Source: Candidatus Poribacteria bacterium
Lineage (GTDB): Bacteria; Poribacteria; WGA-4E; WGA-3G
NCBI GenBank assembly: GCA_965242965.1
Contig: OZ251518.1
Location: 3,232,001-3,296,000, forward strand
DNA: 64,000 nucleotides
Direction: 5' to 3'
Notes under the pieces: generated by a model
The model's database searches: none
The model's input: the letters and a program-made list of their open reading frames with translations, nothing else
What the model was told of the DNA's origin: nothing
Part shown: positions 23,568 through 62,445 of the stretch, one piece after another
How positions within the stretch are numbered: the stretch's first letter is position 1
How the letters are laid out: the number at the start of each line of letters is the position of its first letter
Translations under genes and position numbers: made by a program

Positions 23568-23863
23568 CCCCCGCGATCTTAATTGTCTGAAGCAGGATTT
23601 CCAAGATTTCCAAGATTTACAGGATTATCTCCTGCGCAACGAGCATGCTTTTTTTAATGGATGCCTCTTCAGGTCCTTTAGGTCCTGCATGTCTATAGAA
23701 AAACAGGGTTTCCGTAGTTTTCAAGGTCCGTTAGGACCTTAATGGAAATGGGAGCTAAGCAAGTCAAGGCACATTAAGGACCTAAAGGACCTTAGGTTCA
23801 TCGTGTCGCACGGTGCTATAGACATTAAGGTCTTACAGACTTAAAGTCCCGAGCGGAAACGCC
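23568..23863. repeat. ~300-bp composite non-coding module (island A left module)
   Basis: Homologous to 55318-55612 and 55864-56122 (GATCTTAATTGTCTGAAGCAGG..GGATGCCTCTTCAGGTCCTTTAGG..GACATTAAGG). Confidence 0.85.
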
Positions 23864-23872
23864 ACGGTTACC

Positions 23873-24450
23873 GTAGCGCGGGGGCCTCTCCCCCGCGAGT
23901 GTTCGATCCAAACGAAAAACGCCGCTTGGAACGTAGCGCGGGGGCCTGTCCCCCGCGATCTCTCCCAAAACGAAAAACGTCCGCAGCCCAGAGACCACGG
24001 ACGTTTGCTGTTAAGACCGGCGCATGGCGAGGGACAGGCCCTCGCCCTACGCGGGAAGGCGGGGTGTTTTAGGTGACGTAGCGCGGGGGCCTGTCCCCCG
24101 CGAACGTTCATTTGTCTGAATCAGGATTTGCAAGATTAGCAAGATCTACAGGATGAAAATCTCCGCGTTTCCAAGGCCCTGCTGTGCAGCGGCAAAACGC
24201 CACGGTTACCGTAGCGCGGGGGCCTGTCCCCCGCGATCCCTCAAACAAAACGAAAACCGTCCGCAGCCCGGAGGCCACGGACGGTTTCTGTGCCACCCTA
24301 GGCACAGCGAGGGACAGACCCGCGCCCTACGGTTCGAGCGGAGTGGCTTGATGCATCGCGAGGGACAAGCGTAGGATAGACCTCCCGGTCTCAATGCACA
24401 CCCTAGGGGCGGCTCAATGCATCGCGAGGGACAGCCCCGCGCCCTACAGG
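23873..24450. repeat. REPIN-like array
   Basis: GTAGCGCGGGGGCCTGTCCCCCGCG..CGAAAAACGTCCGCAGCCC..GGCGAGGGACAGGCCCTCGCCCTAC inverted pairs. Confidence 0.85.
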
Positions 24451-24503
24451 CATGGAGCGTAGTTAGTCCCGCGAAGTCCTCAAAACAGCGCGCAACTCAG
24501 AAC

Positions 24504-24938
24504 TCATTTAAACTTCACAGTGAAAGCGACCATGCTCTCCTTCTGGACTCCCATCTGGACATCAAGAACCTCTCCTGATATCCCTCTGAAGCCAAGCCCA
24601 ACAAAAGTGGATTTGGGAAGGCTAACCGTGAGCTCCTGAACCCCTAATTCCTTTGCCTGTTCAATAATTTCGAGAATGTTCTCGGTGTCGGTAGGTTTAG
24701 GTTTGGTAAGTTGCCGTAAACCCTTGCCAACCAAAGACTGTCCTTTCCCTGCCAAAAATCTGAAGGGAGAACTGACTAGGGACACACCGACGGGTAATAC
24801 GGATACTGAAGCCATCGCTAATTTCACTAAAGCCCTTCTAGGCTTCTTAGTGGCATCAGGACTTTCTTCATCTGCCTGAACGGTTGACTCATAGTCAACT
24901 TTGGCGATGCCGTCTTTATCAACTTGAATTATAGACAT
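24504..24938 (-). CDS. Hypothetical protein, lower GC
   Basis: Open frame with AAGGAG upstream of ATG 24938; no recognisable domain. Confidence 0.55.
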   Translation of the reverse strand: MSIIQVDKDGIAKVDYESTVQADEESPDATKKPRRALVKLAMASVSVLPVGVSLVSSPFRFLAGKGQSLVGKGLRQLTKPKPTDTENILEIIEQAKELGVQELTVSLPKSTFVGLGFRGISGEVLDVQMGVQKESMVAFTVKFK

Positions 24939-25003
24939 TTCATGCTCCTTTTTCAGAGGATGGAAGATGGACGGATGCAAAAATCCGCCCATATCCAAAT
25001 GGC

Positions 25004-26827
25004 TCACTTTCGTATCACCATCTTCCGCGTCGCTGAAAAATCACCCGCCGTGAGCGTGTAGAAATACACGCCACTTGCAACAGGCTCATTCAACGCATTC
25101 CGGCCATCCCAATACGCCGCACGGCCCTTCGTTTGGTAAATGCCGGCAGGCCGCTGCCCTAACTCCAGCGTGCGAACCAACTTCCCATCCGAGGCATGGA
25201 TGGAGACTTGAATTTCCGCTGCTTCCGCCAATTCATAAGGGATCCACGTCTCCGGATTAAACGGATTTGGATAGTTGGCAAGCAGTACCGTCGCTTCCGG
25301 CTTCAAACTTGCAAGCAGTTGCTCCAGCACGACAAGCCCGCGCTGATACGCTGGTGTGGTGAGTGCCAACGCCTGCGCCTGTGCTACCCAACCCGCAACA
25401 TCTGCCGCCACGAGCACCTCGCGTCCCCCCGCCTGAACAGCAGGTGCACCGGCACCACCGAAGGCCCCTGCAACTAGCACCAAATCCTGAATGTTAACAA
25501 CACCATCGCCGTTCACATCCGCGACGTGCTCACCCGTTTTCCCGAACTGACCGGCAATCAGCACCAAATCCTGAATGTTGACAACACCATCCCCATTCAC
25601 ATCCGCGACGTTGTCAAATTCCACCTCTATCCCCTTCGCCTGCAACGCGGGAATATGCGTGTAGAGAGAGGCATAACTGAGCGGGCAGCCCTTAAGGCGC
25701 AGCCCAATGCTGTCCCAAATTATTCCGGGCAGACTCAACCCTAGCAAAGGCGACACATCCGAGACATCGGTGTCGTTGAGCCACAGCCGCGTCAAGTTTG
25801 TGAGACTTGCCAGCGGCGAGATATCCGAGACAGCGGTGCCGCCGAGACCCAGCCACCCCAAGTTTGTGAGTCCTGCCAGCGCCGAGATATCCGAGACGGC
25901 GGTGCCGTCGAGATACAGCCTCTCCAAGTTTGTGAGGTTTTCCAGCACCCCGATATCCGAAACGGCGGTGCCGCTGAGAGTCAGCCCCTTCAAGTTTGTG
26001 AGGTTTTCCAGCACCCCGATATCCGAAACGGCGGTGTCGCCGAGACCCAGCCCCTCCAAGTTTGTGAGGTTTTCCAGCACCCCGATATCCGAAACGGCGG
26101 TGTTGCCGAGACCCAGCGCCACCAAGTTTGTGAGGTTTTCCAGCACCCCGATATCCGAGACATCGGTTCTGCTGAGCCACAGCCCCTCCAAGTTTGTGAG
26201 GTTTTCCAGTGCCCCGATATCCGAAACGGCGGTGTCGCTGAGATCCAGCGTCTCCAAGTTTGTGAGGTTTTCCAGCACCCCGATATCCGAAACGGCGGTG
26301 TCGTAGAGCCACAGCCCCTCCAAGTTTGTGAGGCTTGCCAGCGGCGACACATCCGAGACGGCGGTGCCGGCGAGACCCAACTCCGTCAAGTTTGTGAGAC
26401 TTGCCAGCGGCGACACATCCGAGACGGTGGCGTAGATGAGAACCAGGTACTCCAAGTTTGTGAGGCTTGCCAGCGGCGACACATCCGAGACGGCGGTGCC
26501 GGCGAGACCCAACTCCGTCAAGTTTGTGAGACTTGCCAGCGGCGACACATCCGAGACGGCGGTGCCGGTGAGATCCAGGTCCGTCAAGTTAACTGCATGC
26601 TCCAGCCCGGTGAGATCTGCTATCTCCGTGTAAGTTGCCTTAAGCTTCGTTAACTTGCGCATCGCATCCACCGTGAGTGCTGCACCTGCCGGCAGTTCAA
26701 GGCGTGCGCGGATGGCCGCTGCTAACTCGGCATCCGGAATAGAAACCTCTGCTTGCACGGGCGGCGCGGTTAACTGCGCCAAGGCAGTTAACACCAGGGT
26801 CAAAGTTAAAAGCGTTAATCTTTTCAT
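25004..26827 (-). CDS. Secreted internalin-like LRR protein with dockerin and FlgD/T9SS-type C-terminal domain
   Basis: Signal peptide; IPDAELAAAIR cap; 22-aa LTNLxxLxLxxTAVSD repeats; DVNGDGVVNIQDLV twice; LLANYPNPFNPETWIPY..WDGRN..SGVYFY. Confidence 0.9.
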   Translation of the reverse strand: MKRLTLLTLTLVLTALAQLTAPPVQAEVSIPDAELAAAIRARLELPAGAALTVDAMRKLTKLKATYTEIADLTGLEHAVNLTDLDLTGTAVSDVSPLASLTNLTELGLAGTAVSDVSPLASLTNLEYLVLIYATVSDVSPLASLTNLTELGLAGTAVSDVSPLASLTNLEGLWLYDTAVSDIGVLENLTNLETLDLSDTAVSDIGALENLTNLEGLWLSRTDVSDIGVLENLTNLVALGLGNTAVSDIGVLENLTNLEGLGLGDTAVSDIGVLENLTNLKGLTLSGTAVSDIGVLENLTNLERLYLDGTAVSDISALAGLTNLGWLGLGGTAVSDISPLASLTNLTRLWLNDTDVSDVSPLLGLSLPGIIWDSIGLRLKGCPLSYASLYTHIPALQAKGIEVEFDNVADVNGDGVVNIQDLVLIAGQFGKTGEHVADVNGDGVVNIQDLVLVAGAFGGAGAPAVQAGGREVLVAADVAGWVAQAQALALTTPAYQRGLVVLEQLLASLKPEATVLLANYPNPFNPETWIPYELAEAAEIQVSIHASDGKLVRTLELGQRPAGIYQTKGRAAYWDGRNALNEPVASGVYFYTLTAGDFSATRKMVIRK

Positions 26828-26954
26828 TTCGATTTCTCCTTTTGTGTATCGGGACCGGGAGGTCCCTCCTACTGAAGAGGGTGGATATCAACATCCGCCC
26901 TCATTTGGATTTCAATGCACGGCGAGGGACAGGCCCTCGCCCTACGGTAACTCA

Positions 26955-27204
26955 CCGGTATGCGCGGTTTGCAACTGCGCCTACGGAGGTTGTGTGCGAG
27001 CTCGTGTGCCCGCACATGTCTTGGCTGTCTGAATCAGGATTTACAGGATTATAGGATTTCCAAGATGAGGGAGTCTCTTGTCATCGTAGACCCTCTGTCG
27101 CGGTAGGAGCGATTTCCTCATCACGATTTCTACGAGACGCGTTTTGGCTAAGCGCGCTCCTAATCCTGTCATGCCTATAATCTTGTGAATCCTGATTCGG
27201 ACAA
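26955..27204. repeat. ~250-bp composite module (island A middle module) with ~30-bp inverted repeats
   Basis: Homologous over its whole length to 57751-58002; GTCTGAATCAGGATTTACAGGATTATAGG..CCTATAATCTTGTGAATCCTGATTCGGAC. Confidence 0.85.
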
Positions 27205-27322
27205 TAAGTCCCTGATTCTAGACTCAGATGATGTTGGCCTGAGGCCGCGCGGCAAACAACATAGGATTGCCTGAGTTGCATAATCCTCGCCTATCCAGAA
27301 CATTTCGGAGACATTCAGTCTG

Positions 27323-28309
27323 TCACAGGATAGATCTAAGGATGCTCCGAACAGTTGACAACACGTCTTTTCCAACTTTCACCGCTTTGAATGCCCGCCG
27401 GAACGTTGAGGTGTCCATGCCGTTTCGTAAATCGTCTACTGCTTCGGCAATTTTCTTCATCCTATACTTTGCCATTGCTCGATTGAAGTAGGCACTGAGC
27501 TCCCTATACCCAGACTCATCAATCACTTTGTTATAAAGGTTGATTGCATCCCAGGTGTACCCCTCTTCAAGTTTCACATTTGCTAGCGAGATTAAGACAC
27601 AAGAATTTATTGGCCTTTCTCCAATCTGGGAAAGTCCAACTGTTTCCCACTCACGCCAGCTATTGAGATGATTTGCACGAGTGACCCAACCCAATGGAAT
27701 TTCCGGAATGAGAGGGACATCAACTACGCCTCGCAAAGAGACACCTATGACTTCACCGTACTCGTTTAGGACGGGGCCACCGCTGCTCCTACGCCGAACT
27801 GGGGCTTTCACAAAGAATTCCTGTGAGTCACAACCTGCCGTTCCGCGGATTTTGCCTTCCACAAGAGAACCTTCTTCACTGTCGCCCTTCCTGTTGACCG
27901 CAGCATAAACCCAAACCCTTTGTTGCGGCTCAATGGAATCGTTGTCGACTGGAGAAAGGAATGTGCCCCCAATATCGGTAACCTTAATATCGGTAACCCT
28001 TAAAACGGCTAAATCACGTTGCGGATTAATAGCAATGGCATTCTCAGCAAGGCTGAGCCCCGTTCCGGTTGCGAAATGCCGCGCCGCAATCCGGTGGGCT
28101 CCGTGGAGAACGTGATAGTTGGTAACAATCACGTTGTCTTCTATAAAGAAGCCGCTACGGAAACCGAGATTCGTTTTTATCAACACCGTAGAGTTTAACG
28201 CGGCGTTGCGTCTACTCTCGGATGGTAATGCATTTTCTACAGCCATTATGCACAACAGAAGAAGTGCCAGAACTGTGAAACGCAGGCATAATTTGTTCGC
28301 ATGTTTCAT
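27323..28309 (-). CDS. Secreted trypsin-like (S1) serine protease with C-terminal TPR
   Basis: Signal peptide; VTNYHV (His), DLAVL (Asp), SSGGPVLN (Ser); AYFNRAMAKY TPR. Confidence 0.8.
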   Translation of the reverse strand: MKHANKLCLRFTVLALLLLCIMAVENALPSESRRNAALNSTVLIKTNLGFRSGFFIEDNVIVTNYHVLHGAHRIAARHFATGTGLSLAENAIAINPQRDLAVLRVTDIKVTDIGGTFLSPVDNDSIEPQQRVWVYAAVNRKGDSEEGSLVEGKIRGTAGCDSQEFFVKAPVRRRSSGGPVLNEYGEVIGVSLRGVVDVPLIPEIPLGWVTRANHLNSWREWETVGLSQIGERPINSCVLISLANVKLEEGYTWDAINLYNKVIDESGYRELSAYFNRAMAKYRMKKIAEAVDDLRNGMDTSTFRRAFKAVKVGKDVLSTVRSILRSIL

Positions 28310-28377
28310 TTTTTGTGAATTCCTCGCTGTAGGTTAGGAGTACAGGCGGATATCGAAAGCCGCCCATACCTTGGATA

Positions 28378-28744
28378 GGAAAAACATGCATTGAGACAGA
28401 AATCCCAATGCAACGAAAATAACCCGCCACGCAAAGAATGCGTGCGGGATTGAAGATAACATGACGACGAAAGTCGCCGCTGTCAAGTGAATAAGATTTG
28501 CTTAACGCCTGTGGGTGTCGGGGGGGGGCGAGCCTCCCCTCTGGGCATTAAGCCGAACGGGAACTCGTGATGGCGCGACAACGGGCATAGACGCACGGCA
28601 AGCGCGCATCTTTCGGTGCCCAAGCAGGTCTACGGCGACCTCGGTAGCAATGGAAAAAACAATTCGCTGGTTCACGGGTATCGTTCCTCTGTTCGGTTTC
28701 AGTCTCGCGGTGGCGCGTTTTTTTCACGCGCATCACCACGTTTG
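28378..28744 (-). ncRNA. Putative ~365-nt structured ncRNA/leader, copy A
   Basis: Conserved with 61359-61728; multiple stems with compensatory/wobble changes; upstream promoters and U-tailed 3' hairpins. Confidence 0.6.
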
Positions 28745-28749
28745 CATTA

Positions 28750-28955
28750 ATGATACACAAAAATGCAATAAATGTCAAACATTTTTTTTGCGAAAAATCG
28801 TGGAAATGTTCACAATTAACCACATTCTACATAAATTTCGGTTTTTTGTCAACGTTTTTCTGCGAAAAATCGTGAAAAAGGTCAAATTATCGCGGAAATT
28901 CGTCAAAAATGTTTAAAACTGAGTTTATTTTAGCAAATGTCGCATTTTTTGTCAA
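28750..28955 (-). promoter_or_regulatory. Three tandem sigma70 promoters
   Basis: TTGACA-17-TATCAT (28778-28750), TTGACA-17-TAGAAT (28852-28824), TTGACA-17-TAAAAT (28955-28927). Confidence 0.8.
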
Positions 28956-28988
28956 GGTGATTTCGCGAAAAAAAACGCTGCTGCCACC

Positions 28989-29860
28989 GTAGCGCGGGGG
29001 CCTGTCCCCCGCGAACGTTCGATCCAAACGAAAAACGTCGCTTGGAACGTAGCGCGGGGGCCTGTCCCCCGCGATCTACCGACCGAAACGAAAAACGTCC
29101 ACAGCCCAGAGACTACGAACGGTTTCTGTGACAATCTAGGCACGGCGAGGGACAGGCCCTCGCCCTACGGTGAAAGGAGAATTTTGGCACGGCGAGGGGA
29201 ACCCGCTCGCATGCGCGTGTGGCATGCGAGGGCCCTCGCCCTACGGTTCGGCGGCGTGGTTCGGATAGCCACGAAATAAAAAGTATATTAAGGTCCTACA
29301 GACCTTGGCCCTCTTCGCGTCGCCGCGCGCTATAGACATTAAGGTCTTACAGACCTAAAGAGACGTTTCGGCGCGATAAAAACCCCTAATCCTGCTAATC
29401 TTGGAAATCTTGCAAATCCGGAGCAGGATTCTCACGGTCACGCCTGTCAAGACAATCAGGTTTCCCTGATCGTCCCTCTTATCACGATTTTCACGATTAG
29501 AGGTTCTGATGCACCAACACCCCGTGGCCTGCCACAACTGCGCCGGCGTACCAGAGTTCTAATCCTGTGAAATCCTGGAAATCTTGGAAATCCTGCTCAA
29601 TCCTGCTAATCTTGAAAATCTTGGAAATCCTGTTCATATCTTGGAAATCCTGCTCCAGACAAATGAGATCGCGAGGGACAGGCCCTCGCGCTACGGTGGA
29701 AGGAACAATCGATGCATGGCGGGGGACAGGCCCTCGCGCTACGGTGAAAGGGGACGATTTTGGCACGGCGAGGGACAGGCCCTCGCGCTACAGGAACCCC
29801 CGAACGCATCGAGACCCGAGGTCTCTCCTACGGGTGTGCATCGAAATATGAAACATCCTC
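28989..29860. repeat. REP/REPIN and AATCCTG/AATCTTG 9-mer cluster
   Basis: Many GTAG-REP hairpins and tandem AATCTTGGA/AATCCTG units; ends in an orphan TIR-like TATGAAACATCCTC. Confidence 0.8.
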
Positions 29861-29913
29861 TATTAATTCACAATTTTTCCTTGACATCAACAACAATCAA
29901 TGGTAAAATTAAC

Positions 29914-29982
29914 GAAGGTGTTTCATATATCAATGCCTTCCAAGGGGGAATAAATACGGAAACGGAGTTATGAAACACCCTA
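29914..29982. mobile_element. Minimal, degenerate copy of the TIR element without REP cargo
   Basis: GAAGGTGTTTCATA..TATGAAACACCCTA; flanks AATTAAC/AGTTAAC; shares subterminal GGAATAAATAC.GAAAC.GAGTTA with 47501-47792. Confidence 0.55.
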
Positions 29983-30011
29983 AGTTAACTAATCATGAGG
30001 AGGTGGAAGCG

Positions 30012-30971
30012 ATGAGAAATTACAAAAGCGTCCTCACGGCGGTGTTGGCTGCCTTCTGTGTGACACAAGCCTTCGCCGAGGCACCGCCGCTCTACAAAAC
30101 AATCCACGACGCGAAGGCGTTCATTGTCCAGCATCAAAACCGCGATGGCGGTTGGCCGCTCGTGCCGGAAGGCGAGAGCGATGTGGAAATTACGGGGCTT
30201 GCAATCTGGGCGTTGATTGACGCAGGGTGGGGCACCGGCTCGCAGGTGATCCGAAGGGGTGTCGCGTATCTGCGGCATGCGCAGTACGACAACGGCAGCT
30301 GGAATGATAACACGGCGCACACCATCTTCGCCGTTATCGCCTTGGCTGCGGCCGAAACGGATGCGGATGCCCGCTTCAAAGCACTCCGCTGGCTGCGAGC
30401 AGCACAAAACCCCGTTGGCAGCTGGGGAACAAAAGAGAGAACCCCCAGTAATATCCTCTATACCGCCGCTGTCATCGCGGGATTTAAAAGGCTCAATTTC
30501 AAATTCGAGCGCGAGTTCGATGCGGATGACCAGGACATACCGTGGCTCTCGAAAGGCTGTCACTGGTTGTCCCAACGTATTAACTTCGATGGCGGCTGGT
30601 CCCTCCAACGGAGCCCCCGTTCAGACGTTTTTGTGACGGCGTGGGTGTTGCAAGGCTTGGCACCAGTCTATGACATTGACGCGCAAATTGCATGGCTGAA
30701 GCAGATGCAGAACGAAGATGGCGGCTTCGGTAGATACAAGGGCCAGCCGAGCGACCCGGGGGTAACCGCCGCGGCGATTATGGCACTCGCCGCGGGGGCA
30801 GACCCGCTCAATACGCGGCGCGTCGCTATCAACTATTTAATATCGGCGCGGCAAGCAGACGGCAGTTACGTCAGCGATACGCCGATAGAGCTCAGCGAAC
30901 CGACAGTGAACTTGCAGTCTACCTGTTTTGTGCTCATCGCCATCCACGCGAAGAAGGACGAAGAGGAGTGA
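30012..30971 (+). CDS. Secreted prenyltransferase/squalene-cyclase repeat (alpha/alpha barrel) protein
   Basis: Signal peptide; QNRDGGW, QYDNGSW, QNPVGSW, QNEDGGF, QADGSY QW-type repeats; RBS GAGGAGG. Confidence 0.8.
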   Translation: MRNYKSVLTAVLAAFCVTQAFAEAPPLYKTIHDAKAFIVQHQNRDGGWPLVPEGESDVEITGLAIWALIDAGWGTGSQVIRRGVAYLRHAQYDNGSWNDNTAHTIFAVIALAAAETDADARFKALRWLRAAQNPVGSWGTKERTPSNILYTAAVIAGFKRLNFKFEREFDADDQDIPWLSKGCHWLSQRINFDGGWSLQRSPRSDVFVTAWVLQGLAPVYDIDAQIAWLKQMQNEDGGFGRYKGQPSDPGVTAAAIMALAAGADPLNTRRVAINYLISARQADGSYVSDTPIELSEPTVNLQSTCFVLIAIHAKKDEEE

Positions 30972-30994
30972 TGGCGAACGCTTCCGTAGAGGAG

Positions 30995-31426
30995 CAGGAT
31001 TTGCAAGATTTACAAGATTGGCAAGAGATAAGCAGGAATTTCAGGATTTACAAGATTAGGAGCAAGAGACTGTAGTTCGGGAGCGCCTGCTCCCGAACGG
31101 CCGCATGGCGAGGAGAACCCCTTCTTGGCCCGTAGCGCGGGGGCCTGTCCCCCGCGAGCGTTCATGTGCGCGATGGCACGGCGAGGGACAGGCCCTCGCC
31201 CTACGGTAAAGGGCGCGGCCTCGCCAACCGTAGCGCGGGGCCCTCGCATGCCACACGCGCATGCGAGCGGGTTTCCCCCGCGATCTCCAATCCGCGCGAA
31301 AACCGCAAGCCAACCAAGACCGAGGCACGGCGAGGGACAGGCCCTCGCCCTACGGTAAGCGGGACGTTTTTCATCGTAGCGCGGGGGCATGTCACCGCGA
31401 CGTTGAGCAAGTTATGAAATACCCTC
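30995..31426. repeat. REP/REPIN cluster ending in an orphan TIR-like sequence
   Basis: CAGGATTT units, REP pairs, TATGAAATACCCTC at about 31413-31426. Confidence 0.7.
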
Positions 31427-31440
31427 ATACAAATTACTAT

Positions 31441-32814: not shown

Positions 32815-32830
32815 GAAGTCTCCCTTATGG

Positions 32831-39518: not shown

Positions 39519-39526
39519 TTCTGTGT

Positions 39527-51158: not shown

Positions 51159-51164
51159 CCGTTG

Positions 51165-53016: not shown

Positions 53017-53171
53017 CGTTCGCCTCGCACAAGTCTACCAAGTTCGTCGTTCTTCGCGCACCATAACGACCTGTAATGCGCCGAACATCGCGCCGACACA
53101 TCAACCGATCGAATCGTTAGTGTTAATTATACCCTATTTCCAAGCGAAAGTCAAATTGATTTTCACTCCCC

Positions 53172-53912: not shown

Positions 53913-54084
53913 TGTTTTTCGTTTGTTTCCTTGGGGGAATTCACCATTGTAGTTCGGCATCGCCTGATTCCGAATCTGACAAAGAATTGAGAATCCCTCC
54001 TATGCGCAGTTTCCGCGCGAATAGCCGGAACGTGTTCTGCCACAGGAGGGATACGTCGCGAGCCCAGCTCGCGCCGAGTCGAGT

Positions 54085-54444: not shown

Positions 54445-54695
54445 TAGGAATTCTCTCCTTTCTTGATGTAAAAATAGGCGTTGTCTTCCCCGCAGCAATC
54501 GGCGAGGAGTTCGTTGCCTTTCATGTTGCACCATGCCGCGATGTCCACGGGCGCGCCCGGGTCCATCGCGCGGATCTGGGCTATCTGTCCCGGTTCAAGC
54601 GGCAGCATCGCCTTCAGCAACGCGATAATCAGGTCACCGCAGCCGAGTTCGCCTAAATCGTGGACAGCATCTGGCAGGATATCAGGTAAATCCAT
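54444..54695 (-). CDS. TusA family sulfur carrier
   Basis: DLGELGCGDL, DPGAPVDIAAWC..GNEL, FYIKK. Confidence 0.85.
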   Translation of the reverse strand: MDLPDILPDAVHDLGELGCGDLIIALLKAMLPLEPGQIAQIRAMDPGAPVDIAAWCNMKGNELLADCCGEDNAYFYIKKGENS

Positions 54696-54740
54696 AGTGA
54701 ATCTCCCATTTTTCTCTGCGAGAATTGTTTTCAAAAATTA

Positions 54741-54769
54741 AGTTTACCATAAGAGTGGTTTAAAGTCAA
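54741..54769 (-). promoter_or_regulatory. sigma70 promoter for tusA-dsrE-osmC
   Basis: TTGACT-17-TAAACT with TG extension. Confidence 0.55.
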
Positions 54770-54788
54770 GCAAAAATCGTGTTAAACT

Positions 54789-56182
54789 GAGGCTGTTTCA
54801 TAAATCTGTGTAGGAGCCCTCCCGCGTTTCGATGCGTTTTGTTGGTGTGCGTATCGGGACAAGGATGTCCCTCCTACCCGGAACGATGCACCCCGGTAGG
54901 AGAGCCCTCCCGGTCTCGATGCAATAGGGCGGCAGAAAGCCCCACGGCCCGTAGCGCGGGGGCCTGTCCCCCGCGATCGGTGCATGGCGAGGGACAGGCC
55001 CTCGCCCTACGGTGAGAAGGGGCCGTTCTTATCCCGTAGCGCGGGGGCCTGTCCCCCGCGATCTCTCCTCCGAAACGAGAAACGTCCGCAGCCCGGAGGC
55101 CATAGACGTTTGCTGTCACGATCGCTGCATGGCGAGGGACAGGCCCTCGCCCTACGTGCCATGCGGCGATTGTCTATTTCTTACCGTAGCGCGGGGGCCT
55201 GTCCCCCGCGATCGATGCATGGCGAGGGGAACCCGCTCGCATGCGCGTGTGGCATCCGAGGGCCCAAGCCCTACGGGGAAAGGGGACGTTCTGAGTCCCG
55301 TAGCGCGGGGGCCTGTCCCCCGCGATCTTAATTGTCTGAAGCAGGATTCACAAGATTTACAAGATTTACAGGATTATCTCCCGCGCAATGAGCATTCTTT
55401 TTGCAATGGATGCCTCTTCAGGTCCTTTAGGTCCTGCATGTCTATAGAAAAACAGACATGCCACTGTTTTCAAGGTCCTTTAGGTCCTTAATGGAAATGG
55501 CAGCCAAGCGAGTCAAGGCACATTAAGGTCCTACAGACCTTAGGGTGCGCTGCGATGCAGGATGCTATAGACATTAAGGTCTGACAGACCTTAAACCCCG
55601 AGCGGAAACGCCCCTGTTTTCGTAGCGCGGGGGCCTGTCCTCCGCGATCTCTCCGCCGAAACGAAAAACGTCGCGGGAAACGTAGCGCGGGGGCCTGTCC
55701 CCCGCGATCTGCCGACCGAAACGAGAAACGTCCGCAGCCCAGAGGCCATAGACGTTTGCTGTCACGATCGATGCATGGCGAGGGACAGGCCCTCGCCCTA
55801 CGGTGCAAGGGGACGTTCTGAGTCCCGTAGCGCGGGGGCCTGTCCCCCGCGAAGCCTCTTGTCGTCTGAAGCAGGATTTACAAGATTTATAGGATTTGCA
55901 GGATTATCTCCCGCGCAACGAGCATGCTTTTTCTAATGGATGCCTCTTCAGGTTCTTTAGGTCCTGCATGACTATAGAAAAACGGACCTACTACATTCCT
56001 AAGGTCCGCTAGGACTTTAATGGAAATGGCAGCCGAGCGAGTCAAGGCACATTAAGGACCTAAAGGACCTTAGGTTCATCGTGTCGCAAGGAGCTATAGA
56101 CATTAAGGACCTAAAGGACCTTAGGCACGGTGAGGGAAACCCGCTCGCATGCGCGTGTGGCATGCGAGGGCCCTCGCCCTAC
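54789..56182. repeat. 1.4-kb repeat field: orphan TIR-like left end, REPINs and two copies of the left module (55318-55612, 55864-56122)
   Basis: GAGGCTGTTTCATA at 54789; REPIN units; modules homologous to 23568-23863. Confidence 0.85.
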
Positions 56183-56457
56183 GGTAATATCGATATGTCG
56201 GGGATGTCGGACGGGGACGCAGGGGTGGTTAAGGTGGGCTTTCTAATCGTTCTCGGATTTTTTTTGCCGCATTCTATGAACTTGTCTGACCTGTAGATTA
56301 ATTCATCAAAGGAAATTTTCCCGGCTTGGTATTCTTCGTTGTCCTTTTTCCAGTGCGCGATGATTTGACCTGCAGGTGGGCACGTTGAGTGGAAGAGGTT
56401 ATACGCGATGAGGGCGAGGATTGCGCCGATGAGGAGGATGCGGGTAAGTCTTTTCAT
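56179..56457 (-). CDS. Small hypothetical membrane-anchored/secreted protein
   Basis: MKRLTRILLIGAILALIAY N-terminus, two Cys; C-terminus runs into a REP. Confidence 0.5.
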   Translation of the reverse strand: MKRLTRILLIGAILALIAYNLFHSTCPPAGQIIAHWKKDNEEYQAGKISFDELIYRSDKFIECGKKNPRTIRKPTLTTPASPSDIPDISILP

Positions 56458-56463
56458 GCGGAT

Positions 56464-56500
56464 AAAAAAAGGACCCGGCCGCGCCGTGCCGCGGCCGGGG
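56464..56500 (-). terminator. Intrinsic terminator after the FGE-sulfatase gene
   Basis: CCCGGCCGCG-loop-CGCGGCCGGG then TCCTTTTTTT on the minus strand. Confidence 0.7.
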
Positions 56501-56518
56501 TAGTTGAACGGTTAAGAG

Positions 56519-57628
56519 TTAAGGTGTAACTGGCCGCACGCAACGAAAACCGATGGTGAAGTACGCGGTCGCCGGCAGCTGCTCGGAGCGATAGGAGACA
56601 CGCAAGGAATCTGCTGGACTCCACCAACTGCTGCTGCGAAACACGCGCCTGGAGTCGGTCGGGATAGTTGTGAAGTTTTCACGTAGCCATTGGATGGTCA
56701 TCCCACCGGCGATGGGGTTCCGACTGTTATCAGACTCAGCGTAGAAATCCTCATCGTATGCGTCAAGACACCATTCATACACGTTCCCCGCCATATCATA
56801 CAACCCATACCCATTCGCAGGATACTGCCCAACGGGGGTGGTACCGATGGTGGCATTTGCCGAGCGGTTCGCATCAGCGGGGGTGGGCTCGTCGTCGCCC
56901 CAGGGATACTTCTTTCCCGCGAGCCCGCCGCGCGCCGCATATTCCCACTCCGCCTCCGTCGGCAAACGCTTGCCAGCCCACTGCGCATACGCCATCGCCG
57001 CATACCAACTCACATTAACCACCGGATGGTCTGCTTTCTCTGTGGGATAGGTATTGCCAGTCCAGCGAGACCAGTGCTCGAGGTAACGGACATCGTGGAA
57101 CCTGTCCTCAATCCTGTCCTTTTGCCAGTCTGGATTCGCATCGACAAACGCCTTAAATTGCGCGTTGGTGACTTCGTATACGTCCATGTAGAACGCATCC
57201 AAGTGGACGGTATGCACGGGTTTTTCGGCATCGTATGCCTCCTCGTCCTCGCTGCCCATCTGAAATGAGCCAGCAGGAATCAGCACCATGCCTTCGGGTA
57301 TTGGCTCTTCAACGGTATAATTCAAAGTGACGGCTTCTCCTTCCCACTGCAACCCCAATGCCAAAGGACCCGGGGCAAACGGCCCAGCAATAGTCACCGT
57401 CTCGCCCCCTGGTGTTGCAGTGCCACCTGTTACTTGGAGTCCTTCCGGTGTGCCATTAAAGGTCACCGTAATCGTTGCATTGTTCTGAATCGTGCTTCCA
57501 TCTGCGGGGTCCGCCGAGAGAAACTGAATCGCTTCCACCAGTGGTTCTTCTCGGTTGCAGCTGCCCATCGCTATTGCGAAGAGACAGACTGCGAGACTTG
57601 CGAACGTTCCTAAATGTTTCAACACCAT
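56519..57628 (-). CDS. Lipoprotein with Ig-like domain and FGE-sulfatase (SUMF1-like) domain, probably non-catalytic
   Basis: Lipobox MGSC; MVLIPAGSFQMG, EVTNAQF, RLPTEAEWEYAARGG, GLYDMAGNVYEW, IGFRC; catalytic Cys pair absent. Confidence 0.85.
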   Translation of the reverse strand: MVLKHLGTFASLAVCLFAIAMGSCNREEPLVEAIQFLSADPADGSTIQNNATITVTFNGTPEGLQVTGGTATPGGETVTIAGPFAPGPLALGLQWEGEAVTLNYTVEEPIPEGMVLIPAGSFQMGSEDEEAYDAEKPVHTVHLDAFYMDVYEVTNAQFKAFVDANPDWQKDRIEDRFHDVRYLEHWSRWTGNTYPTEKADHPVVNVSWYAAMAYAQWAGKRLPTEAEWEYAARGGLAGKKYPWGDDEPTPADANRSANATIGTTPVGQYPANGYGLYDMAGNVYEWCLDAYDEDFYAESDNSRNPIAGGMTIQWLRENFTTIPTDSRRVFRSSSWWSPADSLRVSYRSEQLPATAYFTIGFRCVRPVTP

Positions 57629-57750
57629 AATTCTCCTTGCCCGCCATCAACAGCGGGCAGTAGAAATAAAACAAGTTTGCAGCGGCATCCGCGCCGCCGC
57701 GTTCATTTGTGAAAAAACCGCGTTAAAAAGCGCGGTTTTTTCAATGAGGG

Positions 57751-58002
57751 CCGGTAGGCGCGCTTTGAAACCGCGCCTCCGAAGGTTGTGTGCGGGCTCG
57801 TGTGCCCGCACATGTCTCGTTGTCTGAATCAGGATTTACAGGATTATAGGATTTCCAAGATTAGGAATTCTCTCGTCGCGGGAGACGCTCTTTCCCGGTA
57901 GGCGCGACCTCCTGGTCGCGATTTCTACCAGGCATGCTTTGGATAAGCGATGTGCTCATAATCCTGTAAATCCTATAATCTTGTAAATCCTGATTCAGAC
58001 GA
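57751..58002. repeat. ~250-bp composite module (island B middle module)
   Basis: Homologous to 26955-27204. Confidence 0.85.
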
Positions 58003-58031
58003 TTTCCACGGCGAATTAGCCGCGTGAGTCA

Positions 58032-59591
58032 TCAACGATTGACATACCGAACCAAACTCGCCAATGTCACTCTTTCTCGGTTTGGTGGATTGGCTTCGTT
58101 ATCGGCCACCTCTATGTTCTCGTCAACGAGACAAGGATCTGCATCCCAGCTCTCGTCCATCAAGAACGATGTCTCGCAGTGGAGCAGCATCGCGCCGAAG
58201 ACTTCCATGAGAATAGCGGAGCCGACAGGACCTAGCCGATTGCCACCGCCCCGGATACCTGCCTCACGCATCAGGTAGAGAAAAAGCGGCGTGCGATTTG
58301 CGAGTTTGTTGCGAGTCTCAGCATCGAGGCATGCTCCCGCCAGAATCTCACCGAGCAGGAGGTTCTGATTGTGATTAATCGGGTATCCTCGATCTGCTAG
58401 TGCTGCAGCAACGCGTTGCCCACTTGGCAATCCCAGGACATATCCTCGGAGGAGGTTACGGAAGGCCAAGGAGAGATCTTGCCTTCTTGCTTCCGGGCCC
58501 ACGACACGTTCGGGAAGTTCCACTAACTCATTCGCCAGCAGATGGTCAATCGCTTTGGAGGGCACGTAAACCTGATTCGGATTCACATCTAAGAGGAACC
58601 GCCAATCCACGGTGAGTTCCGGTGGCACTCGTCCGAAGCCGAGGGTGCGGAACCGTTTATCAAAAATCCCGATCTCTGGGTAGGTCGAGTTCGCAGGATA
58701 GTTTGAGCGCACCAAGGTGTGTCCAAACCGATAAGCGGCGGCGGAGAATTCAACCGGCATGCGGAGGCGGCCGGCAGCGTCAATCAGATGCCCGAGGAAG
58801 AAAGGATAGTCTCTTTCTCCTTCAGGTCTGTTCGCGTTTTCCTGGATCTTCTGCAGCGCGAAGTTGTAAACGTCCACGTCACAGACGCGCTGCAGAAAAT
58901 CATAAAGCACGAGAGCCTGATAGTGGTAGCGCACATCCCGTTGCACGTCCTCAAAGCGAGGTGGAGGCTCATTCGCGTTATCATGCTGAATGAGCAGGTC
59001 GATGATTCGGCGATTATGAAAGCGTAGAAACAACAAGTGCATCTGTGAGAGAAAGATGTTCTCGTCGTTACGCGGGTCGCCGATAAGTGCCGTGCCATCT
59101 GCACTGCGCGGCACATCGTTGGGATTCTCAACGTCGTTAACTTGGCTGCCGACGCGCAGTCGCCACGGTTGTTTTCTGTCGTAGAGATGCGGAGAGACAT
59201 CCGGTCCAAAACCGTACATGCTATCCAGATCAAGCGAGGCGGAGCGGAGATTCGGCAGTTCTTCAACTCGCCCTCGGGGCAACGCTTCACTCGTGAGTTC
59301 GCTTTCTGCATCCAGTGTGATGTCGTGATCCACGAACTGCGCGAAGAACGTGTAGGCGGCCGGAACATCACTGTTACCAGAAGTGTCATTGGCATCACGC
59401 ATAATCCCGCATCGTCCGCCGAGTCCGTTCGCTATCTCCTCAGCGGCAGCTCGATCTTCAATGCCGAATTCTTCCGCCCAGGTTGGTATGGGCGGATTTT
59501 GCAGCGGTAACAACATGCCGAAATTGCCAAGGCGGAGATGGTTGCTAGTCGGGACTCTGGCAATTCCGTGGGCGTTTGTTCTGTTATTCAT
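58032..59591 (-). CDS. Animal-type heme peroxidase (peroxidase-cyclooxygenase superfamily)
   Basis: FAQFVDHDIT, LDLDSMYG, GDPRNDEN, FLRFHN, EFSAAAYRFGH, RGYVLGLPSGQ, LGPVGSAI; RBS AAGGAAGG before ATG 59591. Confidence 0.85.
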   Translation of the reverse strand: MNNRTNAHGIARVPTSNHLRLGNFGMLLPLQNPPIPTWAEEFGIEDRAAAEEIANGLGGRCGIMRDANDTSGNSDVPAAYTFFAQFVDHDITLDAESELTSEALPRGRVEELPNLRSASLDLDSMYGFGPDVSPHLYDRKQPWRLRVGSQVNDVENPNDVPRSADGTALIGDPRNDENIFLSQMHLLFLRFHNRRIIDLLIQHDNANEPPPRFEDVQRDVRYHYQALVLYDFLQRVCDVDVYNFALQKIQENANRPEGERDYPFFLGHLIDAAGRLRMPVEFSAAAYRFGHTLVRSNYPANSTYPEIGIFDKRFRTLGFGRVPPELTVDWRFLLDVNPNQVYVPSKAIDHLLANELVELPERVVGPEARRQDLSLAFRNLLRGYVLGLPSGQRVAAALADRGYPINHNQNLLLGEILAGACLDAETRNKLANRTPLFLYLMREAGIRGGGNRLGPVGSAILMEVFGAMLLHCETSFLMDESWDADPCLVDENIEVADNEANPPNRERVTLASLVRYVNR

Positions 59592-59789
59592 TGTTTTCCT
59601 TCCTTTCGTCATTTGTAGGTTAAGATTCGGTAATCTTAACTCGTTCGGGCTCAGGCGAGCCCGAACTACAAGGGTTAATTTCGTATCACATCCCCGAGGG
59701 CGAGCGGGTAATGCAACCCGAGCGCCCCCCAGAAATGCGATGCTCAATGCATAGGGATTTCGTAAACCCAGTGCAACTTTGCATCAAGC

Positions 59790-60131
59790 CTATATGAGAA
59801 GCGTTTCAACACTGTTCGTTTCAGCGAAAACGCGAACGCCTTTGAGTCCCCCGGGAACCTCCTTCATGACATAGGTAGCCTCAATAGGGGTTACCACGGG
59901 ACGGGAAGTTCCTTCCGGGGGCTCGGCGTAGAAGGAAAATTCCCAGATGCCGTCGGGCGGTGGTTGCACGTAAGTGTAAGGAACGAGTTCCGGATTCGTC
60001 CATCCCGCAGATGCCACTTCGCCTTCTGCGCCAATTAAGAGCATGTCAGCACCGCTATCGGTTTTGGAACGCGACAGCGAAACCGTCTTGACAGCATGGA
60101 CTCGGTTGCCTTGCTCATGTTCGTTATTCAT
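59790..60131 (-). CDS. Small conserved-looking beta-sandwich hypothetical protein
   Basis: AEGEVASAGWTNPELVPYTYVQPPPDGIWEFSF..KGVRVFAETN; RBS AAGGAGG. Confidence 0.65.
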   Translation of the reverse strand: MNNEHEQGNRVHAVKTVSLSRSKTDSGADMLLIGAEGEVASAGWTNPELVPYTYVQPPPDGIWEFSFYAEPPEGTSRPVVTPIEATYVMKEVPGGLKGVRVFAETNSVETLLI

Positions 60132-60339
60132 CGTTCTTCCTCCTTTTGCGCGTGAGTGTTCCGCGGTGCCTCTCTGCGGCGGCAGTCGCGGTATCGGATT
60201 AAAAACATCTTCCAGTATGCGGGCACCGTTTGCTGTGCGGCGGCAGCACGCTAGTATTAAGATGTATGTCGTCATCCCTATCGGTAGGCGCGCTTTGAAA
60301 TCGGGCCTACCGGGTTTATGATACGGGTGTGGGTTCACC

Positions 60340-61104
60340 CTAGTCGACATATTCGTAAGCGTCATCGCCAAGGGCTCGGATATTGTCAACTGATTTGACA
60401 GTGAACTCTTCAGGCCAGGGGTCCAACTGTGCGTCCTGGCATGCAAGATGCGCCCTTTGGCCCGGATGTGCTTCCTGCCATTGTGCCCAGAGTCTGTCCA
60501 CCTGCGCGTGATGGAACCAAAACGCGGGGTCTCGCGGCGAAGACATCGTCGTCATGTCACCACCAATCCACACGTGTCCACGGTTGTGCGGGCCGTTTTC
60601 AAGCCTTCGCGCAAATTGATAATAACTCCTCTGAGATAGGATCGCTTCGATCTGCGCCTCGTCAGTGAACCAGCGCATTTCCCCTGGTTCAGGTTGTTCA
60701 TCGTGGCGGGGCCCGGGGTTCCTCTGCCATCTCGATCTCTCCGGGAACAGCCGGTTCTCCGGATCTGGGAATCCTTCCAAGTGGCCGCCATCAGCGTTCC
60801 AATCCCAATAGGGAATCGCCAGCGAATCATCAATCTCGCGAAGTCTTCTCTCAAAAACGATGAGGTAGGCGCGATGCCACGGCAAGAATCTCCGATAGCC
60901 CAATGGCCCCGACATTGAACCATGCATACGATGATGGGAACGTCGAAACCCATCTGGTTCCTGAATCATCGCCGCATGGATTTGGACTAGATTTCCGTAA
61001 GTGCCATTGGTCATTAACGTTGAGATAGCCCTGTTCAAGGCACCCCAATCTTCATCTGTCAATGCCAGCGTGCTTTGACGCTGAATTGGCATTGGCATTA
61101 GCAT
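60340..61104 (-). CDS. Tyrosinase (type-3 copper protein)
   Basis: CuA His: IH..MHG..FLPWHR; PYWDW; CuB: HNRGH..DPAFWFHH. Confidence 0.9.
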   Translation of the reverse strand: MLMPMPIQRQSTLALTDEDWGALNRAISTLMTNGTYGNLVQIHAAMIQEPDGFRRSHHRMHGSMSGPLGYRRFLPWHRAYLIVFERRLREIDDSLAIPYWDWNADGGHLEGFPDPENRLFPERSRWQRNPGPRHDEQPEPGEMRWFTDEAQIEAILSQRSYYQFARRLENGPHNRGHVWIGGDMTTMSSPRDPAFWFHHAQVDRLWAQWQEAHPGQRAHLACQDAQLDPWPEEFTVKSVDNIRALGDDAYEYVD

Positions 61105-61358
61105 TTTTAAACTCCTTGCGTTGTCCCATTACCGTGCCTGCAGCACCGGTAATGGGGTGCAATTTCCGCGTCACCTTTTCTGAGATGCATGACGCGGAAG
61201 TAGGTTAAAAGCATCGTTGTCACTGTAACAGTGAAACTCGTTACGTCTATTGATAGCCCAAGTGTCCGTACTGCCAAAAAGGTGCAGCACCAGCCATCCG
61301 CGACGCAAAAGCGACGCGCAGCAGCAAAATGGAACAAACAGGGGAAATAACAACAGAT

Positions 61359-61728
61359 AGGAAAACATGCACCGGGGATGGAGCCTCGATGCAACGAAAA
61401 TAACCCGCCACGCAAAGAATGCGTGCAGGGTCGAAGACAACAAGACGACGAAAATCGCCGCTGTCAAGTGAATAAAGTTTGCTTAACGCCTGTGGGTGTC
61501 GGGGGGGGTCGAGCCTCCCCTCTGGGCATCAAGCCGAACGGGAACGCGTCGTGACGGCGCGACAACGGGCATAGATACACGGCGCGCGTGCATCTCTCGG
61601 TGCCCAAGCAGGTCTACGGCGACCTCATTAGCAATGGAAGAATTAATTCGCTGGTTCACGGTATCGTTCCTCTGTTCGGTTTCGGTCTCGCGGTGGCGCG
61701 TTTTTTTTCGCGCGCGTCACCACGTTTG
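61359..61728 (-). ncRNA. Putative ~365-nt structured ncRNA/leader, copy B
   Basis: Paralog of 28378-28744 with pairing-preserving substitutions. Confidence 0.6.
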
Positions 61729-61733
61729 CATTA

Positions 61734-61907
61734 ATGATACACAAAAATGCAATAAATGTCAAACATTTTTTGCGAAAAATCGTGGAAATGTTGACAATTC
61801 ATTTTATTTTACCACGATTTTCGGTTTTTTGTCAACGTTTTTCTGGGAAAATCGTGAAAAATGTTTAAAACTGATTTTATTTTAGCAAATGTCGCATTTT
61901 TTGTCAA
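61734..61907 (-). promoter_or_regulatory. Three tandem sigma70 promoters
   Basis: TTGACA-17-TATCAT (61762-61734), TTGACA-18-TAAAAT (61835-61806), TTGACA-17-TAAAAT (61907-61879). Confidence 0.8.
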
Positions 61908-61941
61908 CGTTATTTCGCGAAAAAAAAACGCTGCTGCTACC

Positions 61942-62445
61942 GTAGCGCGGGGGCCTGTCCCCAGCGATCTCTCCGCCGAAACGAGAAACGTCCGCAGCCC
62001 GGAGGCCATGGACGTTTGCTGTCACGATCGGTGCATGGCGAGGGAAACCCGCTCGGATGCGCGGGTGGCATCCGAGGGCCCTCGCCCTACGGTGAAAGGG
62101 GACGTTCTTAGTCCCGTAGCGCGGGGGCCTGTCCCCCGCGATCTCTCCGCCGAAACGAGAAACGTCCGCAGCCCAGAGGCCATGGACGTTTGCTGTCACG
62201 ATCGATGCATGGCGAGGGAAACCCGCTCGGATGCGCGGATGGCATCCGAGGGCCCAAGCCCTACGGTGAAAGGCACCGTTCTTATTCCCGTAGCGCGGGG
62301 GCCTGTCCCCCGCGAACGTTGGCATGGCGAGGGACAGACATCGGGACAAGGATGTCCCTCCTACCCAGACGCGTCCCGTGATCGGTGCATGGCGAGGGAA
62401 CCCCGCTCGCATGCACGTGTGGCATGCGAGGGCCCAAGCCCTACG
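61942..62445. repeat. Tandem REPIN array
   Basis: Two near-identical ~175-bp units plus a partial third. Confidence 0.85.

Follow-up and report, generated by a model that had tools for sequence, protein, structure and literature searches.

Two gene clusters on a 64,000-nucleotide stretch of a sponge-symbiont Candidatus Poribacteria genome (contig OZ251518.1, positions 3,232,001 to 3,296,000; the whole stretch is referred to here as the window) carry unrelated genes inside a common non-coding frame. These clusters, island A at about 23.6-29.2 kb and island B at about 55.3-62.4 kb of the window, are two of 18 islands with one architecture in this genome, which comprises 5.70 Mb in 2 contigs and is 94.7% complete. 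On balance, A and B are probably lineage-specific modular expression islands, shuffled by homologous recombination at their shared modules and headed by an RNA that acts as a cis leader gating read-through.

Direct comparison of the two islands by BLASTN recovered three collinear modules, in agreement with the first-pass annotation, made from the sequence alone, which had described the same elements in the same order and orientation in both. Module L spans 23550-24154 in A and 55299-55904 in B (84% identical over 609 nt), with a second copy in B at 55826-56116; module M spans 26955-27205 and 57751-58003 (83% identical), and module R spans 28374-29039 and 61356-61992 (85% over 672 nt). All sizeable open reading frames (ORFs) of both islands lie on the minus strand, so that the order in gene sense is R, cargo, M, cargo, L, and the cargo genes are co-oriented with the promoters, as had also been described. 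The junction sequence GCTGCTGC(C/T)ACCGTAGCGCGG, likewise noted earlier as common to the islands, was found at 28977 in A and at 61930 in B, and no matches are expected from shuffled sequences. Allowing one mismatch, the genome has 15 occurrences of it, and 12 of these stand at the upstream edge of a copy of R.

Copies of the modules were then sought across the whole genome. R is present in 18 copies of 80-92% identity, plus one of 68%; M is present in 11 copies, and L in 288 copies of at least 150 nt, about 35 of which are full length. A same-strand L lies 1.5-7.5 kb downstream of 14 of the 18 R copies; in 2000 trials of random placement this number averaged 2.6 and never exceeded 9. A same-strand M lies 0.5-4.5 kb downstream of nine (random mean 0.06, maximum 2). 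All 11 copies of M fall no more than 6 kb downstream of an R, that is, inside islands. The modules thus co-occur far beyond random placement, and the independent scatter that would have explained their association by chance is not what the random-placement test shows.

Each island measures 5-7 kb and consists, in gene sense, of an array of two repetitive extragenic palindromic (REP) sequences around a terminator (REP-terminator-REP), three promoters, an RNA of ~370 nt, cargo of one to five genes, often M, a final repeat-protein gene, and L. Genes co-oriented with R lie downstream of it in all 18 islands, and the REP-terminator-REP array lies upstream of it in 13. At the junction, the array that had been described as a REPIN array is indeed present, but it is really a REP-terminator-REP unit, and it recurs beside L as well. 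M occurs once per island, with two copies in island I16 and none in eight of the 18; where present, it always stands directly 5' of the last WD40, leucine-rich repeat (LRR) or formylglycine-generating enzyme (FGE) gene.

An assembly artefact was considered as the source of the repeated frame and rejected, since the copies differ by 8-32%, relatives carry the element, and independent runs contain the sequence, none of those listed being an RNA run. When DNA contigs of four runs from two studies were aligned to island B, its cargo was covered by near-identical short contigs. The contig joints on B all fall in REP repeats and have sides of less than 30 nt, bar two single-contig joints (run X2), and are uninformative with regard to excision, circles or empty alleles.

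The promoter and RNA head

In an alignment of 18 copies, the junction is followed by a T-run, three promoters of the form TTGACA-N17/18-TAnAAT, a GC-rich stretch of ~370 nt, and two hairpins, T1 and T2, with U-rich tails; in many copies a CT-rich stretch extends from T2 up to the first gene. The triple promoter predicted for each head was borne out by three 11-of-12 sigma-70 matches in A and in B. In A, these promoters stand in tandem within 28746-28975 of the minus strand, with -35 hexamers from 28955, 28852 and 28778 and 17-nt spacers, and they are conserved in the 18-copy alignment; in B, the junction and the three promoters, at 61907, 61835 and 61762, occupy 61734-61950 of the same strand. 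The structured R RNA follows at 28374-28745 in A (minus strand, ~370 nt; T1 at about 28448-28423, and T2, flagged by a terminator scan, at 28412-28387) and at 61356-61733 in B (minus strand; 154 bits to model R1). The RNA of B has hairpin variant 1, as in A, variant 2 being found in I09 and others, and its CT-rich leader continues to the start of the tyrosinase gene.

Of the 17 islands with a locatable T2, 15 show no further sigma-70-like promoter on the way from T2 to the first sizeable gene, and the head is therefore the only recognisable source of promoters. The gap between T2 and this gene is 78-272 nt in 13 of the 17. As judged by sequence, the islands thus show the integron-type arrangement of a common promoter upstream of apparently promoterless, co-oriented genes. 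The possibility that the promoters are themselves a special mobile box was rejected, as the consensus TTGACA-N17-TAnAAT has 252 matches in the genome; the unusual feature is the presence of three promoters in tandem before a conserved RNA.

The fold of the RNA was derived with RNAalifold from 17 full-length R copies of this genome and 10 from three related genomes, one of them of another genus (n=27). It consists of a 5' hairpin, a multi-helix core closed by GAGGAAC/GTTCC, a further hairpin, T1 and T2. Across 68-76 pairs, 95-97% of alignment cells are paired (96.8% on the RNAalifold structure), compared with 30-50% when the 3' partners are slid by 1-3 columns, although the structure was derived from the same sequences on which pairing was scored. 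Pairs in which both partners have changed number 14-16, as against 6-7.6 in shuffles (14 versus 6.0 +/- 1.7 on the RNAalifold structure), and none of 500 shuffles reaches the observed value. The T1 and T2 helices are 97-99.6% paired across copies, a helix around an invariant poly-C loop, suggested by the single-sequence fold, is 92% paired, and the single-sequence fold of R has a z of -3.8. A long-range helix proposed by RNAalifold (263-266/440-443) was replaced, and an extension of the helix that closes the core was dropped, being only 74% paired.

Rfam 15 gave no match in the window at gathering or E-value thresholds; the best sub-threshold matches over the head reach 19-23 bits (E values of 0.33-0.58), where the families require 44-80 bits. 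The 141-position core, built into a covariance model, has 20 matches in this genome, seven in a congener, two in a second genus, and none in the other 148 sampled genomes of the class, which places the R RNA in two of 24 genera. Furthermore, a pattern of its conserved motifs was found in only five stretches of two records, all poribacterial, in a species-level collection of genomes, and a metagenome pattern scan for the head returned a single 1.8-kb contig. The R RNA thus appears to be a new, lineage-restricted structured RNA and a candidate for a new RNA family. Its conserved fold stands upstream of U-tailed hairpins and of genes; no ligand, tRNA or protein partner and no alternative antiterminator pairing was identified, and the terminator scan calls neither hairpin in B.

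The covariance model also recovered two divergent matches to the R core that BLAST had missed, at G000:C1:29407-29549 (99.8 bits) and G000:C1:2970107-2970233 (45.8 bits). The truncated R of I01 stands ~2 kb upstream of the former, an arrangement that suggests nested or tandem islands. Two further loci have the promoters of the head but not the RNA, as remnants or relatives of it: G000:C1:2676329, at which a congener has a full island, and G000:C1:1875361, at which a solo R precedes a conserved gene in another congener. A 14-nt motif, GAGGrTGTTTCATA, has no relation to the R head; it has 560 occurrences in the genome and, in the window, stands at 20167, 20618, 29859, 29981, 37608, 37767, 40518, 40962, 47502, 47791, 49176 and 54790. 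In the 18 cases in which a consensus promoter precedes it, this motif starts 1-19 nt past the -10 box, and it may be a very common 5'-leader or operator motif.

Cargo, probable island turnover and the means of exchange

Cargo families were assigned for nine ORFs of the window (Pfam and NCBIfam) and 40 of the 56 candidate cargo ORFs from the 16 other islands (n=49), the remaining 16 being 12 ORFs of less than 150 aa and four of I09, which duplicates B. A Pfam family was found for 30 of the 49. WD40 propellers occur in six islands, LRR proteins in three, tetratricopeptide repeat (TPR) or FRG-TPR proteins in four, and FGE-sulfatase domains in five, plus I09 by homology; the other domains are cohesin, dockerin, FlgD_ig/T9SS-type (type IX secretion system) tails, patatin, caspase, C92 peptidase and Big_5, along with a coiled-coil protein. 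The final WD40, LRR or FGE gene frequently carries a dockerin and FlgD_ig tail, and the C-terminal ~200 aa (dockerin + FlgD_ig) of the LRR protein of A are 46-66% identical to proteins of nine other islands. The neighbours of a given gene vary: a peroxidase gene is followed by FGE in B and I09, by LRR in I16, where M stands on both sides, and by two different WD40 proteins in two relatives. The earlier statement that the cargo of A and B is non-homologous holds, with Trypsin_2 and LRR-dockerin-FlgD_ig in A and tyrosinase, an animal-haem-peroxidase-like protein and FGE-sulfatase in B. Together, these assignments point to a coherent class of predicted secreted, eukaryote-like proteins that appear to have been recombined in varied combinations.

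Comparison with three relatives, two congeners and one genome of another genus, shows that the flanking genes of A are adjacent in all three, ~60-180 bp apart, as are those of B, ~100-290 bp apart. Since the site is empty in the outgroup too, insertion in this lineage is the parsimonious reading. In one congener, the spacers at the empty sites hold a mini-MITE (miniature inverted-repeat transposable element) with the same CTGAAnCAGGATT-type ends that start L and bound M. At the site orthologous to I07, a congener does have an island; its flanks are 91-94% identical to those of I07, whereas its R is only 80% and its M 78% identical, and its R is closer to that of another island. Its cargo also differs, consisting of a 220-aa ORF and an FGE-like protein in place of the TPR, WD40 and dockerin-FlgD_ig proteins found here. 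Conversely, where a congener has a tyrosinase-peroxidase-WD40 island, this genome has only a promoter-only remnant of the head, and islands differ in chromosomal position between the species. Cargo at orthologous loci, whose invariance would have told against exchange, is thus not invariant, with A and B empty in all three relatives and the I07 site differently filled. Judged from these comparisons, islands appear to come, go and swap gene blocks between related genomes.

One exchange was caught within the genome. Islands B and I09, 680 kb apart, share a tract of 2284 nt with 97% identity, which rises to 98-100% from T1 on, whereas elsewhere they are 45-90% identical. The tract runs from the 3' part of R, through the leader, the tyrosinase gene and the 218-aa ORF, to 6 nt past the start codon of the peroxidase gene, and the two islands differ in the central hairpin variant of R. 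Such a tract is what a recent event of ectopic gene conversion or recombination would leave, one of its breakpoints lying in the shared head. In the tree of R, the 16 main-type copies of this genome form one clade apart from the copies of the congeners, which fits concerted evolution or lineage-specific spread; a divergent, I04-like type spans both genera.

Five Pfam families of recombinases were searched: PF00589, PF01548, PF01797, PF00239 and PF07282. Phage_integrase (PF00589) has no match in the whole genome at its 94.7% completeness, and the same search was positive in 14 of 14 control genomes; IS110 DEDD (PF01548) likewise has none. Y1_Tnp (PF01797) has two matches, both more than 85 kb from the window, one of which is interrupted by two TGA codons; one adjoins a TnpB gene, which suggests an ordinary IS200/605 element. 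Resolvase (PF00239) has one match, outside the islands, and TnpB-type proteins (PF07282) have seven, none in islands and the nearest ~8 kb beyond I18. The statement that the window holds no integrase or transposase is therefore upheld for the five families searched, DDE transposases being outside the search, and the linked REP-associated tyrosine transposase (RAYT), tyrosine or serine recombinase that had been thought worth seeking is represented by none of the five families in or beside an island. A guide-RNA transposon (IS110 bridge RNA, or TnpB/IscB omega RNA) was also considered and rejected, as there is no linked enzyme. With no tyrosine recombinase, no XerC/D-type protein was detected in the 94.7%-complete genome; the gene may be missing from the assembly or too divergent, or chromosome dimers may be resolved by a different system.

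REP sequences, short GC-rich GTAG-headed palindromes in many copies, number ~3960 on both strands, roughly one per 1.4 kb, with at least 33 in the window. In ~9 of the 18 islands, 'R + cargo' stands between directly repeated copies of the REP-terminator-REP array, which could support RecA-dependent excision and insertion; the arrangement is only suggestive. The ends of M are inverted CTGAAnCAGGATT-type repeats ~160 nt apart in nine islands, like the terminal inverted repeats of a MITE; all 11 copies lie inside islands, however, so M is not dispersed as MITEs are, and no autonomous relative was found. Inverted CTGAAnCAGGATT motifs bracket six of the 18 islands, and the '>' motif lies upstream of R in six of 18. 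No autonomous element with CTGAAnCAGGATT ends was found, DDE families being outside the search, and 16 of the 18 motif pairs spaced 0.7-4 kb apart lie inside islands. The 18 island regions cover ~3.5% of the genome and contain about one in three of the ~170 genomic copies of the end motif CTGAAnCAGGAT.

In the proposed mechanism, the insulated head (REP-terminator-REP array, three promoters and ~370-nt RNA) would supply the transcription of the cargo, and the R RNA would act in cis as a leader whose terminator hairpins gate read-through by attenuation or antitermination; some 18 host-interaction operons would then form one regulon. Islands would turn over, and cargo would be shuffled, through ectopic recombination of the RecA type or gene conversion, for which the shared modules and REP arrays would be the anchors; no site-specific enzyme would take part. 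The main rival to the leader is a separate, abundant small RNA (sRNA): R would be a stand-alone, multi-copy, highly expressed and trans-acting RNA whose poly-C loop could pair with G-rich ribosome-binding sites, its linkage to cargo reflecting shared island ancestry. The two consecutive terminator-like hairpins with their near-complete pairing (97-99.6%), the invariant poly-C run in a loop closed by a 92%-paired helix, the strong consensus promoters, and the solo R upstream of a backbone gene in one relative all suit such an RNA. It is nevertheless judged unlikely, given the lack of another recognisable cargo promoter in 15 of 17 islands, the short gaps, the orientation of R towards co-oriented genes in 18 of 18, and the conserved CT-rich leader that runs on past T2 in many copies.

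As to how the islands move, integrons, with IntI, attI, attC cassettes and a Pc promoter, offer a formal parallel. In an integron-like system, a site-specific recombinase would move the cassettes, M or L would resemble attC, and the head would stand for attI and Pc. Like an integron, an island has a single upstream head that gives promoters to apparently promoterless, co-oriented and unrelated genes in varied combinations, with an imperfect inverted repeat, M, between gene blocks, and the peroxidase gene of I16 has M on either side. Yet integrons have IntI and a per-cassette attC in one array, while the islands are many, separate and short and have a head with a long structured RNA. Moreover, none of the five recombinase families occurs by the islands; M occurs once or twice per island, stands only before the last repeat-protein gene, and is missing from eight of 18, the other gene junctions having no shared site; and M marks neither end of the recent exchange between B and I09, one end falling at a start codon and the other inside R. 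Because the genome has no detectable tyrosine recombinase and M is not a per-cassette site, the integron mechanism proposed in the first-pass annotation is not supported; it is close to refuted and the least credible of the alternatives. What stands of the repeat-scaffolded cassette platform that it proposed is the shared promoter and RNA head before unrelated co-oriented genes in 18 copies, the dynamic islands, and the exchange breakpoint inside R. This exchange looks like ordinary homologous recombination or gene conversion rather than an integron-like process.

An island might also be a composite transposon that is not autonomous and is moved in trans, either through its inverted CTGAAnCAGGATT-type termini or by a REP-associated Y1 (RAYT-like) transposase, its genes having been captured between two MITE ends. 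This accords with the inverted motif copies that bracket A, each abutting a REP, with the '>' ... '<' bracket of six islands, with the mini-MITE of the same ends at the empty sites of one congener, with the different sites of islands between species, and with the two Y1_Tnp matches in the genome. It is set back by the want of an autonomous element with such ends (in a search that did not extend to DDE families), the confinement of 16 of 18 motif pairs to islands, the lack of a definable target-site duplication, the 12 of 18 islands without an upstream motif under the strict pattern, and the state of the Y1_Tnp genes, both more than 85 kb from the window and one with two stop codons; a transposon origin is quite improbable. 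Still less probable, indeed barely tenable, is an ordinary family of paralogous operons that arose by duplication and divergence, its modules kept by purifying selection or gene conversion, with neither mobility nor cassette exchange. Many islands do share a C-terminal dockerin and FlgD_ig module and their gene order, and the clustering of the main-type R copies by genome is what concerted evolution predicts. However, R keeps 80-92% nucleotide identity, the shared protein domains have an amino-acid identity of only 46-66%, and many of the cargo genes are unrelated. The family is disfavoured by the empty orthologous sites of A and B in three of three relatives, and the replaced cargo at the I07 site and the 2.3-kb near-identical tract inside otherwise diverged islands do not fit it either.

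Several observations weigh against the reading of A and B as recombining expression islands under a cis leader. The B/I09 tract is the sole recent exchange among 153 island pairs (at least 95% identity over at least 200 nt), neither a target-site duplication nor a precise insertion junction is definable in the repeat-dense flanks of the islands, and the REP array, with ~200 copies of at least 100 nt genome-wide, may in part flank islands on both sides by chance. A stand-alone sRNA would account for two consecutive terminator-like hairpins no less well than a leader would; the terminator scan calls T2 in A only, and neither T1 nor T2 in B, although both helices are conserved in the alignment; and no convincing antiterminator pairing was found in the R RNA. 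The covariation comes from close relatives (the effective sequence number of the model is 1.52), and relatedness is not taken into account by the shuffle control. The promoter scan is of the sigma-70 type, and non-canonical promoters would escape it. Finally, the restriction of the RNA to two of 24 genera and the clustering of its 16 main-type copies by genome would fit a selfish repeat too. With these points taken into account, shuffled expression islands headed by a leader RNA are still the probable reading. A bolder version, in which the islands would be a recombinase-free analogue of integrons, the non-coding frame giving both the homology for shuffling inside and among poribacterial genomes and a common switch, and R, as a leader of a new class that responds to a ligand or protein, would control the secreted eukaryote-like proteins as a single regulon, is offered as a rather doubtful extension.

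Islands A and B along the window

The features within both islands are given in gene sense, on the minus strand. Upstream of its head, island A has the REP-terminator-REP array (28976-29180), which contains a terminator-like hairpin at 29121-29096 and ends at the junction, 28977-28997. Beyond it, at 29267-29662, the outer flank contains a partial copy of L and inverted CAGGATT/CAAGATT 9-mers in an array, so that the island is framed by inverted termini. Arrays of up to ~10 direct 9-mers (CAGGATTnn / CAAGATTnn) are found at 29560-29662 and at the start of every L, and by their sequence they look like subterminal protein-binding repeats.

The first cargo slot of A, 27323-28309, encodes a secreted trypsin-like serine protease. 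Of the 'protease-TPR' label given to it earlier, the protease part is confirmed (Trypsin_2 at 3e-18), and the possible TPR tail, residues 232-301, rests on a weak NCBIfam match to a TPR lipoprotein model (E 0.0018). Spacer M follows at 26955-27205, MITE-like and with inverted CTGAAnCAGGATT-type ends, and then a REP at 26908-26959. The second slot, 25004-26827, encodes the protein with LRR, dockerin and FlgD_ig/T9SS-type tail found by Pfam and NCBIfam, the LRR part of which is a tandem array of 12 units of 66 nt (25691-26716, 61-87% identical); such an array could expand or contract. An ORF of 167 aa (24504-25007) overlaps the stop of the LRR gene, has no Pfam family, and has a weak homologue in island I08. 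Between the cargo and L, at 23870-24333, lie two more REP-terminator-REP arrays, direct repeats with 28976-29180 that are 85-87% identical (I11 coordinates 6143-6266 and 6417-6606). The 3' module L at 23580-23850, delimited by BLASTN, has the CTGAAnCAGGATT motif at its outer end, where it abuts a REP at 23550-23578.

In island B, the tyrosinase cassette (59630-61480; tyrosinase 60340-61104, 218-aa ORF 59790-60446) is 98-100% identical to that of I09. It is followed by the animal-haem-peroxidase-like protein identified with Pfam (58032-59747), which has homologues in I09, I16 and islands of two relatives, by spacer M (57751-58003, aligned to that of A by BLASTN), and by the FGE-sulfatase-domain protein (56519-57628; Pfam and NCBIfam), FGE-domain proteins being found by BLASTP in seven other islands. 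Next comes a 92-aa ORF with a hydrophobic N-terminus and no Pfam family (56179-56457), which has a 43%-identical homologue in I14. At the 3' end, two copies of L, 55329-55598 and 55860-56122 (together 55329-56122; BLASTN), are split by a REP-terminator-REP array at 55606-55813.

The 102-aa 'small ORF' that had been placed beside R in B (61107-61415) is probably not a gene, its Cys/Phe-rich translation being that of the CT-rich leader. The small ORFs of family F3 at the 3' edge of R were likewise treated as non-coding, as they start inside the conserved RNA or are of low-complexity Cys/Phe. Between the REP array of B and the conserved flank lies a 160-aa ORF with a signal-peptide-like N-terminus (62574-63056), which is missing from the empty sites of the relatives. 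The REP families of the window comprise two 19-nt palindrome variants, a 65-nt composite with an inner hairpin, and a CATCGAGACC...GGTCTCTCCTAC family.

Known systems and significance

Leader-RNA regulons governed by conditional termination include riboswitches, T-box leaders, and processive-antitermination leaders such as EAR or put. The islands resemble these in having a long conserved 5' RNA and terminator-like hairpins before many operons of one functional class; unlike them, R has no Rfam match, occurs in two genera only, follows three tandem promoters, and has two hairpins with no antiterminator alternative found. A different parallel is provided by replacement-type flexible genomic islands and by the capsular loci of Bacteroides with their conserved heads. 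There, too, surface or host-interaction genes vary at the same site and heterologous operons start with a conserved head, whereas in the present case the frame is wholly non-coding, and the islands are small, numerous and variable in position between species. We know of no account of how eukaryote-like repeat proteins are regulated, or their repertoire diversified, in uncultivated lineages.

Similar upstream regions before non-homologous genes in one genome have been described as putative mobile promoters, with the suggestion that riboswitch-like RNA motifs could travel on them, and Correia, ERIC and REPIN elements can carry promoters (Nijveen, Matus-Garcia and van Passel 2012, PMC3575422). 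In the present case, the reused unit is ~900 nt of array, three promoters and 370-nt RNA, and is accompanied by a spacer and a 3' module; moreover, species differ in whether the whole island, cargo included, is present. REP/REPIN-RAYT elements and MITEs such as Correia and ERIC are mentioned in PMC3575422 and PMC3184786. The genome shares with such systems its ~3960 REP palindromes, its Y1_Tnp matches, and the inverted-repeat ends of M and L, which lie between genes or within operons. Unlike REPINs or MITEs, the islands are gene-bearing units of 5-7 kb with different modules in a fixed order, and M is confined to them.

WD40, LRR (PF12799) and TPR proteins have been reported as abundant in Poribacteria, many of them, especially WD40 proteins, with a Por-secretion C-terminal sorting domain (Kamke et al. 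2014, PMC3909097). This is the same class of cargo as in the islands, and the passages of that paper on these families describe proteins, not a shared non-coding frame. Literature searches returned no description of such a frame in Poribacteria. The cargo proteins (PMC3909097) and the idea of a reused promoter (PMC3575422) were already known, and the frame and the RNA in Poribacteria appear to be new.

Eukaryote-like repeat proteins are leading candidates for the means by which symbionts of sponges interact with their hosts. The conserved promoter-RNA head that ~18 of their operons share provides a concrete, testable handle on a possible common switch, and the head is also a compact natural part that combines an insulator, a triple promoter and a structured leader. 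The empty sites, the replaced island and the 2.3-kb exchange show the shuffling of this repertoire in action, and suggest that homologous recombination on a shared non-coding frame could do for these symbionts what integrons do with a dedicated enzyme.

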